DNA from: Bacteroidota bacterium
Lineage (GTDB): Bacteria; Bacteroidota; Bacteroidia; AKYH767-A; OLB10
DNA length: 64,000 bases
NCBI GenBank assembly: GCA_016713445.1
Contig: JADJPB010000014.1
Location: 128,317 to 192,316 of the forward strand
Direction: 5' to 3'
The translations under genes were made by a program, and so were the position numbers. Shown one piece after another: positions 4,180-31,790 of the stretch. Under the pieces are notes generated by a model. It saw only the letters and a program-made list of their open reading frames with translations. It was not told the origin of the DNA and ran no database searches. Positions within the stretch are counted from its first letter, which is position 1. Each line of letters begins with the position of its first letter.

Positions 4180-5553
<1,374 letters not shown>

Positions 5554-5597: not shown

Positions 5598-7399
5598 TTA
5601 TTCTAATGAATGGAATATTTCCTGAATGGAAATTTTGTTTTCTTCTAGAAGGATGATGTTTTTTTGAAAAATCGAAAGATTATCAAATAGATATACCTTA
5701 AAGTAGTTCTCGTAGTATTTTATACCTTCTAATAAATTGGTTTTAAATAATGAAAAGTATGATTTGCGTTTTTCAGTTAAATTGCTTCTGTTTTTTCGAA
5801 TTCTCTTTTGATGTAAGAGATATATAGTTCGAGTTCATTAATGAAAGCATGTGGCCTAAAAGTTTCATTTAATAATTGTGTTCTTCCATAAATATGATCA
5901 ACCATTTGCTTTAATGAAAAACTTCCTGAAAAATATGCGAGGTTTGGACCAGGACAAATAGTTACTGCTGTTAAATTATTTGAGGGTTTGTGATGATTTA
6001 CTATGAGTGCAGACGATCCCAGTCCAGAACAGAGACAGTCTTTTTCTGTGGCTTCCTGTATTTGATCTTTTAGCTCAATTTCATTGTAATAGTTTCTTGA
6101 AGTTGTTTTATTTTAAATGTTGATATTGTCTGGAAGCTGTGCAAATAATTTTTCTGTAAATTCTGTATTGTTCGTCAAAAATTTTTTTATAACAAGGACT
6201 TCCCTGGTTTGTTTTGTGATATTCTATGCTTTCTTTGTTTCTCTGAGCTACTTTCTTTAAAATTATTAAAGGGGACTCCTAATGGTGATGCATGACTAAT
6301 AAAGTAGTCCGATTTTTTGCTCTAATTAATTTTAATAAAGTTTCATTGTCAACATTAGTGGCTTCAGGTACCATTAAAAATGGACTTCCCCATCCAATAG
6401 CGTTGAGTTGATAATATTCCAGTAAGTTTTATGCTCTTCTGACGTACCTATTCCTCCCTGTGCTGTAATAGATAAGTGAGTGCTCGAAAGTAAAAGATAT
6501 TTTTCCTTTGCTAAAAGTGTTTTATTGCATTCGTTAAATAACTCTTGATAAAGGTCATCTCTTTTTTGTTTAAATTCTTCGAGTATTGGACCAAGAAGCA
6601 AACCATTGGAGACAAATGCATGACCTCCACAATTAATTCCTGATTCAATTCTGAATTCTGAAATCCAAAGCCCTTTTTTTGCAAGATATTTTCCTTGTAT
6701 TAATGCAGATCTATAATCACTTACTTTTAAAATTATTTTTTTCTTGATGAACCCATTTTCATTTGGATAAAAGTCTTTGAAGTTTTCACAATACGCGAAC
6801 AGACGTGGATTCAATCCTGCCGAGAAAACAATAGAGGAACATAATTCACTATTTGCATAGCCCCTTAATGCAGATAATGCATCTGAATACTCTTGAGGTA
6901 AAGCGTCTCCTGATTTTGTGAAATTTGGCTTGTCAAGTTTGGTCATGATGTTTACGTCAATTGACCCTGCTTTTATAAATGCTTTTAATTGGTCTTCTAT
7001 TGTTTTTTTCTGCTCCTTGCTTGTCTTTAATGAAAGGTAAAGAGATTTTAATAGCGAAGTATTGGACAACAATTCGAAATACTTATTGATATCTTCATCC
7101 TTGTCAAAATCTTCGTTTTTAAGTTTTGAACCTGTCGGTTCAATACTTTTTGAAGTAAATTCAAGTAGCTGGTTATTCTTTTCGCTCTTGAATCATCTTC
7201 TTTTACAGTTATTTTTTTCAAAAGGTATATTTTCTCTGGTAGAGATAATTTCACGCATTTGTTCCACAAGGTGATCTTCAATGATTGATACTACTGATGA
7301 AATCCCAAATTTGCCTACCTTAATTGGAGTGTCTATAGTGTATCCCAACCCCATAACTGGAATATGAAATGAGTGAAGTGGTGTGATGGGCATGGTCAA
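5598..7399 (-). pseudogene. Conserved hypothetical protein of about 600 aa, heavily frame-disrupted
   Basis: Pieces 7193-7399 (IPVMGLGYTIDTPIKVGKFGISSVVSI), 7048-7281 and 6374-7072 (..GINCGGHAF..) are followed by readable fragments down to a TAA at 5598-5600 (..EKDCLCSGLGSSAL..AVTICPGPNLAYFSG..). I do not recognise the family. Confidence 0.45.
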
Positions 7400-7952
7400 T
7401 TTAATTAATTATTAATCGGACAAAAATATCCGAATTAAACAATCTTGGACATGATAATAATCATGTTATCATTTAAAGCGTTTATTAGTAGGCTGAAATG
7501 AATTAGGTGTATTTGATTTAAACATATTAGAAGCAGTATAGTTAAAGGGGATTTCGTTGTGTTGTCTTCATCTCAATTTACTTGATACTACCTAATGAAA
7601 TATTCGAAAATTATTTAAAGAATATAATGTAGTCAGAAAAGTTCAACTAAACGCCAGTTGGTTTCTTGAGAAACTTTCTAATTGCCACGAAAGAATAATT
7701 CCTTTACATGTTAAATGAAATTTCTTAGCTTTTTTGTAAGTTTCATTTTTTGAAAGTCGAAGATTTTCAAATGATTTTAGAAAGGATTTATGCAAGTATG
7801 ATTTAGGACAAGTGAAAAAAATGGTTTTGTGATGTAATATAGAATTCGCAACATTAGAAAACTTCTAAGAAGGAGCGAGAGTTCGAAGTAAAGCAGTCCC
7901 CATAGCAATCGGGGCCGCCATTATTATGAGAATTTATTCTTTAATTGATCTA

Positions 7953-8207
7953 TCAACTCTGAAATTCTTTCAAATGTTGAATGTATTTCCTGCTCTTCAT
8001 TTTTTTGATATGCATCTCAATATTCCTAGCTTGCTGAAATAGTAGATCATCAATGGAAAGATATAAAATCCAATCATCAGTTTTTTGAGTAAAAGCTGAA
8101 CTAAAGAATTTGCTGTTGTGTTGATTTAATCTTTCCGAAAGATCTAAGCAACTTCCGACATAATATCGGTCAATTTTTGAGGAATAAAGAATGTATACAG
8201 ATGCCAT
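7953..8207 (-). CDS. Small GIY-YIG nuclease family protein (copy 1)
   Basis: 84-aa ORF MASVYILYSSKIDRYYVGSCLDLSERLNQHN...ARNIEMHIKKMKSRKYI, with the GIY..YVG..R..H..E pattern of stand-alone GIY-YIG (URI-domain) proteins. Confidence 0.8.
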   Translation of the reverse strand: MASVYILYSSKIDRYYVGSCLDLSERLNQHNSKFFSSAFTQKTDDWILYLSIDDLLFQQARNIEMHIKKMKSRKYIQHLKEFQS

Positions 8208-8353
8208 TTGAAAAATGATTTATATTAAATTTAGACGAATAGTCTGCTAATTGAATAAAAGCACATGCTTTCATGCATGTGAAAAAAGAAAAACAGAGAA
8301 AGTAACACCGCTCTCGCACTGTTTCTCTCCCGATAGCTATCGGGACTGTTTCG

Positions 8354-8473
8354 TACCCGGAGCCGGAGTCGTCCCGATAGCTATCGGGACGGCATGCCAG
8401 TGAAGGCACAGGTGTTTGATCGCGAAGCTTCGCGACAGCGCGTCTACCACCCCGATAGCAATCGGGGCCGCCA
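8354..8473 (-). pseudogene. tRNA-Leu(CAA)-derived relic lacking the 5' acceptor strand, with palindromes inserted in the D-loop, anticodon stem and T-loop
   Basis: The minus strand reads TGGCGG[CCCCGATTGCTATCGGGG]TGGTAGACGCGCTG[TCGCGAAGCTTCGCGA]TCAAACACCTGTGCCTTCACTGGCATGCCG[TCCCGATAGCTATCGGGA]CGACTCCGGCTCCGGGTA. Outside the brackets it is identical to the tRNA at 10965-11047. Confidence 0.85.
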
Positions 8474-8505: not shown

Positions 8506-8760
8506 TCAACCTGGAAATTCTTTCAAATGTTGAATGTATTTCCTGCTCTTCATTTTTTTGATATGCATCTCAATATTCCTAGCTTGCTGAAATAGTAGAT
8601 CATCAATGGAAAGATATAAAATCCAATCATCAGTTTTTTGAGTAAAAGCTGAACTAAAGAATTTGCTGTTGTGTTGACTTAATCTTACTGAAAGATCTAA
8701 GCAACTACCGACATAATATCGGTCAATTTTTGAGGAATAAAGAATATATACAGATGCCAT
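8506..8760 (-). CDS. Small GIY-YIG nuclease family protein (copy 2)
   Basis: 84-aa ORF, near-identical to 7953-8207. Confidence 0.8.
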   Translation of the reverse strand: MASVYILYSSKIDRYYVGSCLDLSVRLSQHNSKFFSSAFTQKTDDWILYLSIDDLLFQQARNIEMHIKKMKSRKYIQHLKEFPG

Positions 8761-8906
8761 TTGAAAAATGATTTATGTTAAACTTAGACGAATAGTCTGC
8801 TAATTGAAAAAAAGCACATGCTTTTCATGCGTGTGAAAAAAGAAAAACAGAGAAAGTAACATCGCTCTCGCACTGTTTCTCTCCCGATAGCTATCGGGAC
8901 TGGGTC

Positions 8907-10964
8907 GTACCCGGAGCCGGAGTCGTAGCGAAGCCTCGCTACGGCATGCCAGAACAGTAATAACTTATTTTTTTATTTGGTTTAAAATTAAAAGAGGGGA
9001 GTAACACCGCTCTCGCACTGTTTCTCCCTCTGTTTTGTACCCGAGCCGGAGTCGTAGCGAAGCCTCGCTACGGCATGCCAGAACAGTAATAACTTATTTT
9101 TTTATTTGATTTAAAATTAAAAGAGGGAGTAACACCGCTCTCGCACTGTTACTCGCACTGTTTTGTACCCGGAGCCGGAGATCGTAGCGAAGCCTCGCTA
9201 CGGCATGCCAGAACAGTAATATCTTATTTTTTTATTTGATTTAAAATTAAAAGAGGGAGTAACACCGCTCTCGCACTGTTTCTCCCTCTGTTTTGTACCC
9301 GGAGCCGGAGATCGTAGCGAAGCCTCGCTACGGCATGCCAGAACAGTAATATCTTATTTTTTTATTTGATTTAAAATTAAAAGAGGGAGTAACACCGCTC
9401 TCGCACTGTTTCTCCCTCTGTTTTGTACCCGGAGCCGGAGTCGTAGCGAAGCCTCGCTACGGCATGCCAGAACAGTAATAACTTATTTTTTTATTTGATT
9501 TAAAATTAAAAGAGGGAGTAACACCGCACTCGCACTGTTTCTCCTCTGTTTTGTACCCGAGGCTGGAGTCGTAGCGAAGCCTCGCTACGGCATGCCAGAA
9601 CAGTAATAACTTATTTTTTATTTGATTTAAAATTAAAAGAGGGAGTAACACCGCTCTCGCACTGTTTCTCCCTCTGTTTTGTACCCGAGCCGGAGTCGTA
9701 GCGAAGCCTCGCTACGGCATGCCAGAACAGTAATAACTTATTTTTTTATTTGATTTGGGATTAAAAGAGGGAGTAACACCGCTCTCGCACTGTTTCTCCC
9801 TCTGTTTTGTACCTGGAGCCGGAGTCGTAGCGAAGCCTCGCTACGGCATGCCAGAACAGTAATAACTTATTTTTTATTTGATTTAAAATTAAAAGAGGGA
9901 GTAACACCGCCCTCGCACTGTTTCCCCCTCTGTTTTGTACCCCGAGCCGGAGTCGTAGCGAAGCCTCGCTACGGCATGCCAGAACAGTAATAACTTATTT
10001 TTTTATTTGATTTAAAATTAAAAGAGGGAGTAACACCGCTCTCGCACTGTTTCTCCCTCTGTTTTGTACCGGAGCCGGAGTCGTAGCGAAGCCTCGCTAC
10101 GGCATGCCAGAACAGTAATAACTTATTTTTTTATTTGATTTAAAATTAAAAGAGGGAGTAACACCGCTCTCGCAATGTTTCTCCCTCTGTTTTGTACCTG
10201 AGCCGGAGTCGTAGCGAAGCCCCTCGCTACGGCATGCCAGAACAGTAATATCTTATTTTTTTATTTGATTTAAAATTAAAATAGGGAGTAACACCGCTCT
10301 CGCACTGTTTCTCCCTCTGTTTTGTACCCGGAGCCGGAGTCGTAGCGAAGCCTCGCTACGGCATGCCAGAACAGTAATAACTTATTTTTTTATTTGATTT
10401 AGATTAAAAGAGGGAGTAACACCGCTCTCGCACTGTTTCTCCCTCTGTTTTGTACCTGAGCCGGAGTCGTAGCGAAGCCTCGCTACGGCATGCCAGAACA
10501 GTAATAACTTATTTTTTATTTGATTTAAATTAAAAGAGGGAGTAACACCGCTCTCGCACTGTTTCTCCCTCTGTTTTGTACCCGGAGCCGGAGTCGTAGC
10601 GAAGCCTCGCTACGGCATGCCAGAACAGTAATAACTTATTTTTTTATTTGATTTAAAATTAAAAGAGGGAGTAACACCGCTCTCGCACTGTTTCTCCCTC
10701 TGTTTTGTACCCGGAGCCGGAGATCGTAGCGAAGCCTCGCTACGGCATGCCAGAACATTAATATCTTATTTTTTTATTTGATTTAAGATTAAAAGAGGGA
10801 GTAACACCGCTCTCGCACTGTTTCTCCCTCTGTTTTGTACCGGAGCCGGGAGATCGTAGCGAAGCCTCGCTACGGCATGCCAGAACAGTAATATCTTATT
10901 TTTTATTTGATTTTAATTAAAAGAGGGAGTAACACCGCTTCGCACTGTTTCTCCCCTCTGTTTT
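8907..10964 (-). repeat. Tandem array, 16 units of 126-130 bp, each = tRNA-Leu trailer hairpin + AT-rich spacer + tRNA-Leu 3' fragment with a palindrome in the T-loop
   Basis: The anchor 'gtac' (tRNA 3' end) recurs at 8907, 9037, 9165, 9295, 9425, 9553, 9681, 9809, 9937, 10066, 10194, 10324, 10452, 10578, 10707 and 10837. The next period is the tRNA itself (3' end 10965). Confidence 0.95.
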
Positions 10965-11047
10965 TACCCGAGCCGGAGTCGAACCGGCATGCCAGTGAAG
11001 GCACAGGTGTTTGAGACCAGCGCGTCTACCAATTCCGCCATCCGGGC
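10965..11047 (-). tRNA. tRNA-Leu, anticodon CAA (long variable arm)
   Basis: Minus strand: GCCCGGA TG GCGG AATTGGTAGA CGCG CTGGT CTCAAAC ACCTG TGCCTTCACTGGCAT GCCGG TTCGACT CCGGC TCGGGT A. The D-arm is identical to E. coli tRNA-Leu. Caveats: one U-U mismatch in the anticodon stem, and the 3' acceptor strand as sequenced is one C short (TCGGGT versus TCCGGGT in many array units, which pairs fully with G1-U72). No CCA is encoded. Confidence 0.65.
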
Positions 11048-11298
11048 ATTAACTTTAGAGGCCAAACTCTTTTTTTTAGCCATTCTTTTCCTGAACCGCT
11101 TTTAAGTTGTTTTTCTCTTTTCCTTGCTTCTGCTCTTGTTGAATAATGTTCAACTAAGATTAGATCGAAAGGTTGATAAGGTTTGGTAGTTTTTTCCTTA
11201 CCATGATTATGTTGAGATACTCTCACATCAACATTTTGTGTCAAACCTACATAAATGTAGCTTCTGATTTTACTAGATATTACATATACAAAGAACAT
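11026..11298 (-). CDS. Small GIY-YIG nuclease family protein (divergent copy 3); 3' end overlaps the tRNA-Leu gene
   Basis: 90-aa ORF MFFVYVISSKIRSYIYVGLTQNVDVRVSQHNHGK...RAEARKREKQLKSGSGKEWLKK. Its last 7 codons and TAG stop (11026-11028) lie inside tRNA positions 1-22. Confidence 0.8.
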   Translation of the reverse strand: MFFVYVISSKIRSYIYVGLTQNVDVRVSQHNHGKEKTTKPYQPFDLILVEHYSTRAEARKREKQLKSGSGKEWLKKRVWPLKLMPGWRNW

Positions 11299-11311: not shown

Positions 11312-11365
11312 AGACCAGCGCGCCTGCCTGCCGGCAGGCAGGTCTACCAATTCCGCCATCCGGGC
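11312..11365 (-). pseudogene. Duplicated 5' half of tRNA-Leu (through U33), interrupted by a 20-nt perfect palindrome
   Basis: Minus strand: GCCCGGATGGCGGAATTGGTAGA[CCTGCCTGCCGGCAGGCAGG]CGCGCTGGTCT, then AGAGTAAGGATGA-ATG (GIY-YIG start). Outside the bracket it matches the first 34 nt of the tRNA at 11014-11047. Confidence 0.85.
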
Positions 11366-11571: not shown

Positions 11572-12503
11572 ATGGCTAGGCAGGTAAAAATATTCTCCGG
11601 AACAACCTCAAAATATCTCGCAGAACAAATCGCAGATTGTTACGGCTCGCCGCTTGGCGATGTGAAAGTGGCGCGCTTTAGCGATGGTGAGTTTTCTCCG
11701 TCTTTTGATGAAAGTGTCCGAGGTTGTGACGTTTTATTATCCAAAGCACCTTTTCGCCAACTGATAATTTATTCGAATTGTTGATGTTGATTGATGCGGC
11801 TAAAGAGCATCAGCACATTACATTACAGCTGTAATTCCTTATTTTGGATATGCTCGCAGTGATCGTAAGGATAAACCAAGGGTCGCTATTGCATCTAAAA
11901 TGGTAGCTAATTTATTGGTGGCTGCAAGGTGTAACTCGTGTGATGACTATGGACCTCCATGCTCCTCAAATTCAAGGCTTTTTTGATGTTCCTGTGGATC
12001 ATATGGATGCTTCAGCCATTTTCGTCCCTTATATTAAGAGTTTGGATCTTCCTAATATGATGATTTGTGCTCCCGATATGGGTGGCGTTCATAGAGCTCG
12101 TACTTATGCTTCTTATTTTAGTGCAGATATGGCTGTAATTGATAAGCATCGTAAACGCGCAAATGAAATCGAAGGAATGCAAGTGATAGGAGATGTATCT
12201 GGTCGTGATTGTATTTTGGTTGATGATATCGTGGATACTGCAGGTACGTTGACCAAAGCCGCAAGTTTGCTGGTAGAAAAAGGCAGCAAGCGTGCGTGCT
12301 TTTGTACCCATCCCGTCTTAAGCGGAAAAGCTTATGAACGTATCGCCGATTCTAACTTGACAGAACTTGTAGTATGTGACACTATCCCGTTGATAAAACC
12401 AGGAAATAAAATTAAACAATTACCAACCGCCGCATTATTCGCAAAAGCCATTCAAAGAGTGTACTCTTACGAGTCTATTAGTTCACTTTTTGTAAAAGCA
12501 TAA
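11572..12503 (+). CDS. prs: Ribose-phosphate pyrophosphokinase (three frame switches between ~11745 and ~11935 as sequenced)
   Basis: [26 protein letters not shown].. plus ..[33 protein letters not shown]... The gap region reads [22 protein letters not shown] / [26 protein letters not shown] / [12 protein letters not shown] in shifting frames, and each shift sits at a short T or A run. Confidence 0.9.
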
Positions 12504-26139: not shown

Positions 26140-26439
26140 TTTGTTGAAGATTTAATTTACTAGAATCTACAATGGAACCTGCCTATGATTCGGTAGGCAA
26201 GCACTGATTTTTTAAGATGGTAATGATTTTTATGATTAATTTCGAAAGAATACAGAATTGGTCTCAAATTCATTCGCATAAAAGATGGAAGTTTTCGTTG
26301 CTATCGCTGCTGAATCGTAGCGACCGTTGCGCCTGCCTGCAGCAGGCAGGTTTAAGATGAATTCTATTTTTTTCTGAAGTTTATTTTTCAATATTGATTC
26401 AAGTAGTGTTTTTGTATTGATTTAAAATGGTATTATCAG

Positions 26440-26492
26440 TTCTCAGTGTTTCTCAGTGTTTCTCCGTGCCACCTCTGTGCCTCCGTGGTTAA
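26440..26492. repeat. Copy (inverted orientation) of the CAC[N]GAG-type dispersed repeat
   Basis: The reverse complement, ACCACGGAGGCACAGAGGTGGCACGGAGAAACACTGAGAAACACTGAGA, matches the cores at 27995-28040 and 28172-28215. Confidence 0.8.
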
Positions 26493-27940: not shown

Positions 27941-28255
27941 ATAAACATAAATTTTTCAAGTGAAAAAAATGGCATCCATATAATATCTATCTTTTACCAC
28001 GGAGGCACGGAGAAGGCACAGAGAAACACGGAGGTATTCCAATAAATTAATAATTTTTAGTCTTCCTAAAAAAATTCTCCTGCTATCTGAAATTAGTAGT
28101 TTGAAGCTTTTCAAAATAAACATAAATTTTTTCGAGTGAAAAAAATTGAAGTCATTATATTATCTATCTTTTTACCACGGAGGCACGGAGGAGGCATAGA
28201 GAAACACGGAGGTATTCCGATAAATTAATAATTTTAAGACTTAATAAAATTCTCT
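27941..28255 (+). repeat. Two direct copies (175-bp offset) of a ~140-bp element containing the TACCACGGAGGCACGGAG... core
   Basis: 27941-28080 aligns with 28116-28255 (ataaacataaattttt..gtgaaaaaaat..tatctatcttttaccacggaggcacggag..gagaaacacggaggtattcc.ataaattaataatttt). Confidence 0.85.
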
Positions 28256-28449
28256 AGAGTCCAGAATCTAAAATTGGACACGAGGTACAATTATTTTAAT
28301 AGCCTAGATGTTTTCCAATCCTTCAACTCACCAATTTGCCATCGCGAAGCCTCGCGAAACCAATTTGCCAATTCGTATGTAAACGCTTATAGTCGACTAT
28401 AAACGTTTATCTCCCGAGTAATTAGTTCATCCTTCCCTATCCTTGCATC

Positions 28450-31475: not shown

Positions 31476-31790
31476 TTCATTCGCATTTCGCGTCAAGAGA
31501 TTTTAGTAAATTCGTAAATTCGCGTATTCGTATCGCGAAGCCTCGCGACGTACTTTCGTATCGATTCGTTCCCTATAGTTATCGGGATCGCCTTCATTTT
31601 TTTCGCATTTTCGTGTTCATTCGCATTTCGCGTCAAGAGATTTTAGTAAATTCGTAAATTCGCGTATTCGTATCGCGAAGCCTCGCGACGTACTTTCGTA
31701 TCGATTCGCTCCCAATAGCTATCGGGATCTCGTTCATTTTTTCGCATTTTCGCATTTTCGTGTTCATTCGCATTTCGCGTCTGTACGATT
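31476..31790 (+). repeat. About 2.3 tandem copies of a 137-bp unit rich in TTCG motifs, each carrying two palindromes
   Basis: gttcattcgcatttcgcgtcaagagattttagtaaattcgtaaattcgcgtattcgtatcgcgaagcctcgcgacgtactttcgtatcgattcg... recurs at 31476 and 31613, with a partial third copy from ~31762. Confidence 0.85.

Follow-up and report, generated by a model that had tools for sequence, protein, structure and literature searches.

The stretch of DNA analyzed here, 64,000 nt from an assembly of a Bacteroidota bacterium (GCA_016713445.1, contig JADJPB010000014.1) that we call the window, contains a locus flanked by the genes prs, rplY and pth, in which small GIY-YIG nuclease genes, pieces of a tRNA-Leu(CAA) gene and short GC-rich palindromes lie side by side. 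Judged by these flanking genes and by all relatives, the window belongs to Bacteroidota. Read along the minus strand from 11365 to 7897, the locus consists of a 5' fragment of the tRNA gene, a nuclease open reading frame (ORF A), the full-length tRNA-Leu gene, 16 copies of a 128-bp repeat, a nuclease gene of another subfamily (ORF B), a tRNA relic carrying three palindromes, a second copy of ORF B and a relic stub (Table 1). The relic had been singled out in an earlier note made from the sequence alone, which did not mention the nuclease genes that flank it. In the window, ARAGORN and Rfam recognize no tRNA other than the full-length gene; beyond it, an Rfam search at E ≤ 1 yielded just chance matches to plastid psbA 3' untranslated region (3'-UTR) models in the repeat array.

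Table 1. Features of the tRNA-Leu locus, with positions in the window and the evidence for each
Feature	Position	Strand	Evidence
tRNA-Leu(CAA) relic, position 8 to discriminator, three palindromic inserts	8354..8473	-	sequence; restored form 77/77 vs L003 tRNA
D-loop palindrome CCCCGATTGCTATCGGGG, class B 18-mer, replaces AAT	8450..8467	.	sequence, palindrome list
Palindrome TCGCGAAGCTTCGCGA, class C 16-mer, replaces GTC at anticodon stem/loop junction	8420..8435	.	sequence
T-loop palindrome TCCCGATAGCTATCGGGA, class B 18-mer, replaces GTT	8372..8389	.	sequence
Fourth palindrome, class B 18-mer, terminator region just downstream of relic, replaces AGG	8328..8345	.	polymorphic vs L002
GIY-YIG gene ORF B copy 1, 84 aa	8506..8760	-	Pfam PF01541 E = 1e-7; family profile E = 1.7e-44
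GIY-YIG gene ORF B copy 2, second unit of ~555-bp tandem duplication	7953..8207	-	family profile
Further relic stub behind ORF B copy 2 (adjacent), TGGCGG + degenerate class B palindrome	7897..7920	-	sequence
16 tandem copies of 128-bp unit	8907..10981	-	Tandem Repeats Finder; sequence; palindromes
Full-length tRNA-Leu(CAA), source of relics	10965..11047	-	ARAGORN; Rfam 38.3 bits
GIY-YIG gene ORF A, second subfamily	11026..11298	-	Pfam PF01541 E = 8e-18; family profile E = 7e-44
5' fragment of tRNA-Leu(CAA), positions 1-35, upstream of ORF A	11312..11365	-	sequence, palindromes

On the minus strand, from 8473 to 8354, the relic reads TGGCGG[CCCCGATTGCTATCGGGG]TGGTAGACGCGCTG[TCGCGAAGCTTCGCGA]TCAAACACCTGTGCCTTCACTGGCATGCCG[TCCCGATAGCTATCGGGA]CGACTCCGGCTCCGGGTA, where brackets enclose the inserts. 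When these were swapped back to AAT, GTC and GTT, the resulting 77 nt matched positions 8-84 of the tRNA-Leu(CAA) orthologue from a related locus, L003, with 100% identity (loci used for comparison carry L numbers). This match bears out what the earlier note had proposed, namely that the sequence outside the inserts is that of tRNA-Leu(CAA) with its CAA anticodon kept, and that each insert takes the place of exactly 3 nt. The restored relic differs from the tRNA-Leu gene of the window in a single position, a C of the 3' acceptor strand that is missing from the window gene; with this 1-nt deletion, the gene scores 38 bits in Rfam versus 51-58 bits in its orthologues. Also in line with the note, the relic is not a functional tRNA. 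Its 5' acceptor strand (positions 1-7) is gone, so that the complete cloverleaf with both acceptor strands that marks a functional tRNA is not there, and neither ARAGORN nor Rfam, the latter even at E ≤ 1, calls a tRNA at this place.

Perfect GC-rich 16-nt palindromes occur six times in the window versus 0.26 times expected from shuffled sequences, and five of the six fall within the tRNA-Leu region. The T-loop insert of the relic forms, together with its tRNA flanks, a perfect palindrome of 22 nt (8370-8391), and the palindrome in the terminator region behind the relic has a twin at 8882-8899. The anticodon-arm insert has class C relatives at 28342, 31533 and 31673 as well as within the 128-bp array. 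Each insert was thought to extend a helix out of its loop. This holds locally; in the minimum-free-energy RNA fold, however, the D-loop palindrome pairs with the T-loop palindrome instead of forming one of three separate extended arms, since the two are nearly identical in sequence.

A tandem duplication of about 555 bp has a unit made of a tRNA part, a terminator and ORF B, and the relic is the tRNA part of the second unit. The 128-bp unit is made of the 3' part of tRNA-Leu with the class C palindrome GTAGCGAGGCTTCGCTAC in place of the T loop, a terminator hairpin and an AT-rich spacer; the array stands directly behind the intact tRNA, and its copies vary by small indels in runs of C or G. 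At the other end, the 5' fragment is interrupted at the boundary of D loop and D stem by the class A palindrome CCTGCCTGCCGGCAGGCAGG (11323-11342). The reading frame of ORF A overlaps the tRNA-Leu gene, its stop codon being the TAG of the D loop. No integrase gene lies between the tRNA repeats, which enclose just the two types of GIY-YIG genes and short unannotated ORFs of 40-79 aa; the repeat units themselves, at 128-555 bp, are too short to hold one.

PF01541 is the single significant Pfam domain of both nuclease subfamilies, whose members are 94 aa (ORF B) and about 80 aa (ORF A) long among the relatives. The GIY-YIG catalytic residues Y5, Y16, R26, H30 and E64 are invariant in both. The proteins, at 80-94 aa, consist of the catalytic domain alone and have no separate DNA-binding domain, unlike the homing endonucleases SegB and I-TevI. 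NCBIfam gave one match far under its cut-off (TIGR01453, group I intron endonuclease), and a sequence search of the PDB retrieved UPF0213 proteins for ORF A, weakly (E = 2.5e-4), and nothing for ORF B. A peptide-pattern scan of IMG/VR detected no ORF B relatives. Look-ups of the exact sequences of ORF A and ORF B gave no match, and the L25 protein was matched on a 629-bp contig alone. Both ORF B copies of the window end 10 codons early through a 1-nt deletion, located near the 3' end of copy 1. In five other loci (L005, L021, L026, L035 and L036), a 99-aa ORF B reads through a T-arm fragment and stops at the TAG of a palindrome (C terminus ...SR-stop; ORF end near 6298).

In order to place the locus in a wider context, we collected relatives of ORF B from one genome per GTDB species, which gave 61 loci across Bacteroidota. 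An intact tRNA gene on the same strand was found within 600 nt of ORF B in 48 of them, and upstream of it in 39. Thirty-nine of the 48 tRNAs are tRNA-Leu isoacceptors, and the others are specific for Val, Met, Lys and Asn. By comparison, 405 kb of more distant flanking sequence around the same loci contained just 3 tRNA genes. Of 58 ORF B copies, about 50 have the palindrome TCCCGATAGCTATCGGGA or a close variant no more than 450 nt away, in many cases on either side of the gene, and this association extends down to a protein identity of about 45%. ORF A relatives (L114-L119) are accompanied by a different palindrome, CCTGCCTGCCGGCAGGCAGG, which is used in the same way: in L114-L117 it sits in the D arm of a 5' fragment that precedes ORF A, in Flavobacterium azooxidireducens (L119) it occupies the T loop of a 3' fragment after ORF A, and Tunicatimonas pelagia (L118) has a longer hairpin in the D loop with a stem as in CCTGCCTGCCGGCAGGCAGG. 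Nuclease subfamily and hairpin thus go together. Literature searches, which were incomplete in coverage, returned neither an earlier account in which GIY-YIG genes and palindromes occur together at tRNA genes of bacteria nor the 14-mer core of the 18-mer, and this Bacteroidota-wide system of nuclease, tRNA and hairpin is apparently undescribed. A search of 12 related loci with Rfam gave tRNAs, one match to Flavo-1 and nothing more. That match (L006, 1835-1990, 44 bits) covers 156 nt for a model of 76 positions, which suggests a large insertion.

Insertion sites were mapped by aligning the intact tRNAs to their neighbourhoods after the palindromes had been excised. In the GTDB loci, the sequences flanking the palindromes (pal) derive from tRNAs: GGCGG[pal]TGGTAGAC in the D loop, CGCAGG[pal]TAAAA in the anticodon loop, GGGTTCA[pal]CCCGC in the T loop and, for tRNA-Val, GTTAGCTC[pal]TGGTTCAGAGC. 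The sites are 13|17 in the D loop, 31|35 in the anticodon loop and 68|72 in the T loop, with 3 nt replaced at each, as seen over copies of Leu-CAA, Leu-TAA, Leu-TAG, Val, Met and Gly tRNAs. Of 51 tabulated insertions, 37 lengthen the sequence by a net 15 nt. Palindromes also occupy variable loops of partial copies and terminator hairpins behind tRNAs, and in Lys and Val copies a hairpin replaces the whole anticodon arm. In several such Lys- or Val-type copies, the hairpin TCCCGAT-NNN-ATCGGGA takes the place of the equal-sized 17-nt anticodon arm (L054, 6260-6278; L017, 5412-5429; L059, 570-623; L062, 109-202). The partial copies follow a common layout, with 5' fragments upstream of the intact tRNA and 5'-truncated or T-arm fragments downstream of the ORF.

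Two other ideas were discarded. The palindromes do not mark the junctions of a transposon in the loop, as tRNA sequence runs on both sides of them in most relics. Nor does the ORF carry along the 6 nt that separate its stop codon from the palindrome, given that Val relics have Val-specific flanks.

Relics with several occupied loops have arisen independently of the window. Examples are L028 (Leu-TAA, with AAT, ACT and AGT replaced), L010, L006 and L009, of which L028 and L010 have three loops filled. More than 25 other relics have a palindrome at the D-loop site of the window relic. When metagenomes were scanned for the D-loop form alone, 56 instances were added, 22 of which have more palindromes downstream, including relics with three or four palindromes (L126/L162, L128/L160 and, with four, L127/L151). 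The T-loop site is occupied in L047 and L157 as well, and in L157 it is exactly that of the window; L157 is a relic of the same type with an intact anticodon arm, the class C insert being absent. The suspicion that the relic might be an isolated decayed duplicate of no interest therefore does not stand, as loci of this architecture turn up throughout Bacteroidota and in metagenomes.

All of these palindromes are carried by spare tRNA fragments and terminator hairpins. Among the GTDB loci and the ORF A loci, every intact tRNA recognized by ARAGORN is free of them.

Further hairpins and arrays were seen at related loci. L114 has tRNA-Leu(CAA) 5' fragments (1240-1440 and 1750-1810) with other hairpins of about 31-35 nt at the same D-loop site, which end in TCCCG...CGGGA or TCTCG...CGAGA; the site thus takes many hairpin types. 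Arrays of tRNA 5' fragments with a D-loop palindrome, in units of about 65-100 bp, stand upstream of an intact tRNA in L147 (3986-4342), L141 (891-987) and L154 (239-368). Those of L147 and L141 are orphans with no GIY-YIG gene within 700 nt, and L154 lies too near the contig end for this to be judged.

The class B palindrome behaves as a discrete unit. We detected 161 distinct copies via the central 12-mer alone. The outermost pair covaries (T-A in 121, C-G in 21 and A-T in 5 copies) and is matched in 147 of the 161 copies versus 106 expected. One nucleotide further out, pairing falls below chance, and the unit is therefore exactly 18 nt long. There is no constant flank beyond these 18 nt, and a GTAG start is found only in the array variant GTAGCGAGGCTTCGCTAC. 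The terminator site behind the relic exists in two states. L002 has the empty form, ...AAACAG AGG GAGAAACAG..., and the window and L003 have the filled form, ...AAACAG TCCCGATAGCTATCGGGA GAGAAACAG..., so this polymorphism shows the 18-mer moving on its own. A metagenome scan for the empty and filled forms of this site returned no match.

The relic itself also differs between close relatives. After ORF B, the window retains tRNA positions 8-73 with three palindromes and L003 positions 8-33 with two, and the counterpart in L002 is a 6-nt TGGCGG stub with a degenerate palindrome. Relics are thus turned over quickly and are not conserved.

Copies of the 18-mer are found away from tRNAs, too. In IMG/VR contigs we counted 51 stretches with the 18-mer, a raw count that may include chance matches, and none of them lies in a tRNA. 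Many cap terminator-like hairpins (L086, L091, L094 and L112). Among non-tRNA copies, 18-25% are flanked by a stem of 5 bp or more, versus about 3% of control positions.

Elsewhere in the window, related palindromes occur in intergenic DNA. A tandem repeat of about 140 bp at 31480-31760, with no tRNA-like sequence around it, holds TCGCGAAGCCTCGCGA (31533-31548 and 31673-31688) and degenerate class B palindromes (31570-31587 and 31710-31727). At 28342-28357, TCGCGAAGCCTCGCGA is also present as a solitary palindrome, and a variant form of the ORF A hairpin, CCTGCCTGCAGCAGGCAGG, stands alone at 26332-26350. Intergenic DNA at 26437-26490, 27995-28040 and 28175-28215 contains a dispersed repeat, in either orientation, in which CACGGAGG/CCTCCGTG is frequent (for example ccacggaggcacggagaaggcacagagaaacacggagg).

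Frameshift-like lesions of 1 nt are scattered over the window (10965-11047, 11572-12503, 4180-5514 and 8506-8520), and both prs and a beta-eliminating lyase gene are split, prs into two ORFs. These lesions are due either to an error-prone assembly or to real gene decay.

Together, the above observations make it likely that this 5'-truncated, dead duplicate of the neighbouring tRNA-Leu(CAA) gene is a by-product of a selfish GIY-YIG nuclease/hairpin element whose hairpins have colonized its loops. The spare tRNA copy would have been produced by local duplication around the ORF B nuclease gene. Its D-loop and T-loop inserts are copies of TCCCGATAGCTATCGGGA, the conserved companion hairpin of the ORF B family, and the anticodon-arm insert is a member of a second hairpin family, the one that also fills the 128-bp array. 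A working model can be drawn from the Ssn nucleases, GIY-YIG proteins with a single domain and a length of about 94 aa, which bind the NTS/SRM hairpin repeat as single-stranded DNA and cut beside it (Chenal et al. 2025, PMC11893778). By analogy, the nuclease would bind its own hairpin in single-stranded DNA and nick nearby, and repair of the break would copy the hairpin into exposed loops of self-folding DNA, such as tRNA-gene cloverleaves and terminator hairpins, exchanging three loop nucleotides for the 18-mer. Tandem duplications could result from the same breaks and their repair or from replication stalled at hairpins. Selection would keep one tRNA copy clean, and hairpins would build up in spare copies alone. 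The data establish what the relic is, that nuclease, tRNA and hairpin are associated, that each nuclease subfamily has its hairpin, that loops are preferred, that 3 nt give way to 18 and that turnover is rapid; recognition of the hairpin by the nuclease, a single-stranded DNA substrate and the way in which insertions and duplications arise are inferred.

Spare copies are free of selection, and the strict placement in loops therefore most likely reflects the site of insertion and not tolerance after the event. The same three loops are struck in unrelated tRNAs. The full proposal, that an Ssn-like nuclease and host repair place the 18-mer in loops of self-folded DNA in exchange for three nucleotides, and that the same breaks generate the arrays of tRNA fragments, is offered tentatively, as a possible route that we would not yet expect to prove correct in all its parts. 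If it is true, tRNA genes are a natural habitat of minimal nuclease-plus-hairpin selfish elements in Bacteroidota.

Several points speak against the selfish-element explanation. GIY-YIG enzymes hydrolyze DNA and cannot join strands, and insertion would therefore need host repair. No ORF A or ORF B relative was detectable near the 18-mer copies on phage contigs, and 16 of the 56 D-loop instances from metagenomes lack a nuclease gene within 700 nt; in the face of hairpins with no such gene nearby, the nuclease, if it acts at all, must work in trans. For the anticodon-arm hairpin, the window contains no gene of a cognate nuclease, and both ORF B copies there are truncated and may be inactive. Recurrence of the sites among tRNA-Leu copies could come partly from shared ancestry and gene conversion. 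Finally, the published SRM pattern, HGTCWYN(0-2)YYVSBRHN(0-5)WNVSBRGN(0-2)RNCYNB, gave one chance match, off the palindromes, on both strands of 587 kb.

In the main rival reading, the relic would be an integration arm and not a scar. A cassette made of the ORF and a hairpin-studded, 5'-truncated mimic of tRNA-Leu would enter tRNA-Leu genes by homologous recombination of the Campbell or homing type. The palindromes would push the crossover to the 3' end and leave the upstream copy intact, and would later block deletion between the direct repeats. In favour of it, the three inserts cut the 77-nt homology into pieces of 6, 14, 30 and 18 nt. Such a design would account for the position of the ORF B stop codon, which in many lineages stands right next to tRNA positions 4-8 (TGAtggtgg, TGAcggcgg, TAAtaatggcgg), for the predominance of tRNA-Leu, whose members have their D-arm sequence in common, among the associated tRNAs, and for the terminators duplicated on either side of the ORF. 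It fits less well that relics resemble the tRNA of their own host in the variable arm and not one common cassette sequence, and that Val, Lys, Met, Gly and Asn tRNAs are used too, each with its own flanks. Upstream 5' fragments, fragments consisting of the T arm only and orphan arrays that have no ORF are equally out of place in this scheme, as is an 18-mer that moves alone. We consider the cassette unlikely.

A role as structured RNA, suggested in the earlier note, appears less probable still. On the strand of ORF B, the relic comes immediately 3' of this gene and ahead of a terminator-like hairpin, its RNA fold is more stable than those of shuffled sequences (z = -2.8), and the terminal pair of the hairpin covaries. 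It might thus be imagined as a 3'-UTR stabilizer or terminator module of the nuclease mRNA, or as a regulatory tRNA-like RNA, with hairpins selected as RNA. The comparative data lend this no support, with the orthologous relics reduced to positions 8-33 in L003 and to a stub with a degenerate palindrome in L002, and the anticodon insert dispensed with in L157; such rapid turnover makes a function at the RNA level improbable. Moreover, the sequence of the hairpin itself is conserved beyond what pairing demands and is specific to the nuclease subfamily, the same hairpins reside in 5' fragments, orphan arrays and phage terminators, and the relic matches no Rfam family. Ssn enzymes are inactive on RNA (PMC11893778). 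Chance, mis-assembly of a repeat or plain decay of an ordinary tRNA duplicate with incidental palindromes, to which the highly repetitive region and the 1-nt indels in prs, the lyase gene, ORF B and the tRNA acceptor stem might point as signs of an error-prone assembly, is very improbable and already refuted by the comparative data: the same design is present in dozens of independent assemblies and at different tRNAs, palindromes are in about 20-fold excess over shuffles and concentrated in this region, and the exact 14-mer core, calculated to occur about 0.004 times in 587 kb, was found dozens of times.

The loci have practical consequences. They account for breaks in short-read assemblies at tRNA-Leu regions of Bacteroidota, and for the clusters of partial tRNA-like sequences and small "hypothetical endonucleases" annotated there. 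They also offer before and after states (AGG versus the 18-mer, and one to four hairpins per relic), a sharp 18-nt boundary, a fixed footprint (3 nt replaced, net +15), a target preference for loops of tRNA-gene and terminator hairpins, and cognate nuclease genes alongside. Some of the carriers are named isolates, namely Pedobacter ginsengiterrae JCM 17338, Flavobacterium azooxidireducens and Tunicatimonas pelagia.

Several known systems share single traits with these loci. As in integrative elements that target tRNA genes, an intact tRNA stands on one side and a displaced partial copy on the other. In contrast to them, there is no integrase, the insert measures about 0.3-0.4 kb, the 5' or the 3' part of the tRNA is duplicated, often as arrays, and palindromes sit in the loops of the partial copies. 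A GIY-YIG gene associated with tRNA genes, and tandem amplification of tRNA-containing segments, are shared with SegB. As a homing endonuclease of the T4 type, SegB exceeds the present proteins in size and has a DNA-binding domain apart from the nuclease domain; it is phage-encoded and differs further in that neither a cognate hairpin nor hairpins in tRNA loops have been described for it. SegB cuts double-stranded DNA and drives segmental amplification at tRNA genes (PMC13096335). It may serve as a useful precedent for the arrays of tRNA fragments.

The Rickettsia palindromic elements (RPEs), which the earlier note had named as a parallel, resemble the present hairpins as small mobile palindromes able to land inside genes. 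Classic gene-interrupting members such as RPE-1 are about 100-150 bp long, and functional genes tolerate them as in-frame insertions. The inserts described here have 16-20 nt and are confined to non-functional tRNA copies, terminators and intergenic DNA, and the idea of tolerance within functional genes does not carry over, as the intact tRNAs called have none. The parallel was still a fair lead by way of the CGTC-tagged palindromes. Repetitive extragenic palindromes (REPs) fall into classes tagged by GTAG or by CGTC, and RPE-4, RPE-6 and dRS3 of Neisseria belong to the CGTC class, for which no transposase is known and which consists of short hairpins with stems of 8-9 bp (Di Nocera et al. 2013, PMC3733652). 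About half of the dRS3 copies have the longer NTS motif, now linked to a GIY-YIG nuclease (PMC11893778).

REPs and their RAYT enzymes (REPtrons), and likewise the IS200/IS605 elements, offer the precedent of short palindromes clustered around an enzyme thought to spread them via hairpins in single-stranded DNA. Dispersed copies next to local clusters are a further trait in common. The enzyme of the present loci is a hydrolytic GIY-YIG nuclease, however, and not an HUH/Y1 transposase. Class B palindromes are devoid of the GTAG tag, and the elements, 16-20 nt in size, replace 3 nt and target hairpin loops rather than a tetranucleotide.

The closest likeness is to Ssn, whose genes are typically flanked by NTS/SRM repeats, the spread of which was left open (PMC11893778). 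Both systems combine a single-domain GIY-YIG protein of the class of about 90-100 aa with a cognate GC-rich hairpin on one or both sides of its gene, in a layout like that of insertion sequences, and in both each nuclease lineage has its own hairpin. The stem motif TCCCG...CGGGA is common to the hairpins described here and to the Neisseria NTS. The likeness of ORF A and ORF B to Ssn is one of architecture. Differences are apparent as well: the present hairpins are perfectly symmetric 16-20-mers with neither the CGTC head nor the tail, and they are few per genome region and concentrated at tRNA genes, in loops of partial copies. Neither tRNA nor any word beginning with Bacteroid- is mentioned in the main text of the Ssn paper (PMC11893778). 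These loci make the multiplication of REP-like and Ssn-associated hairpins experimentally approachable. By analogy with the known systems, the locus is best described as a putative Ssn-like GIY-YIG nuclease/hairpin system specialized on tRNA genes, in which hairpin insertion would be targeted to loops.

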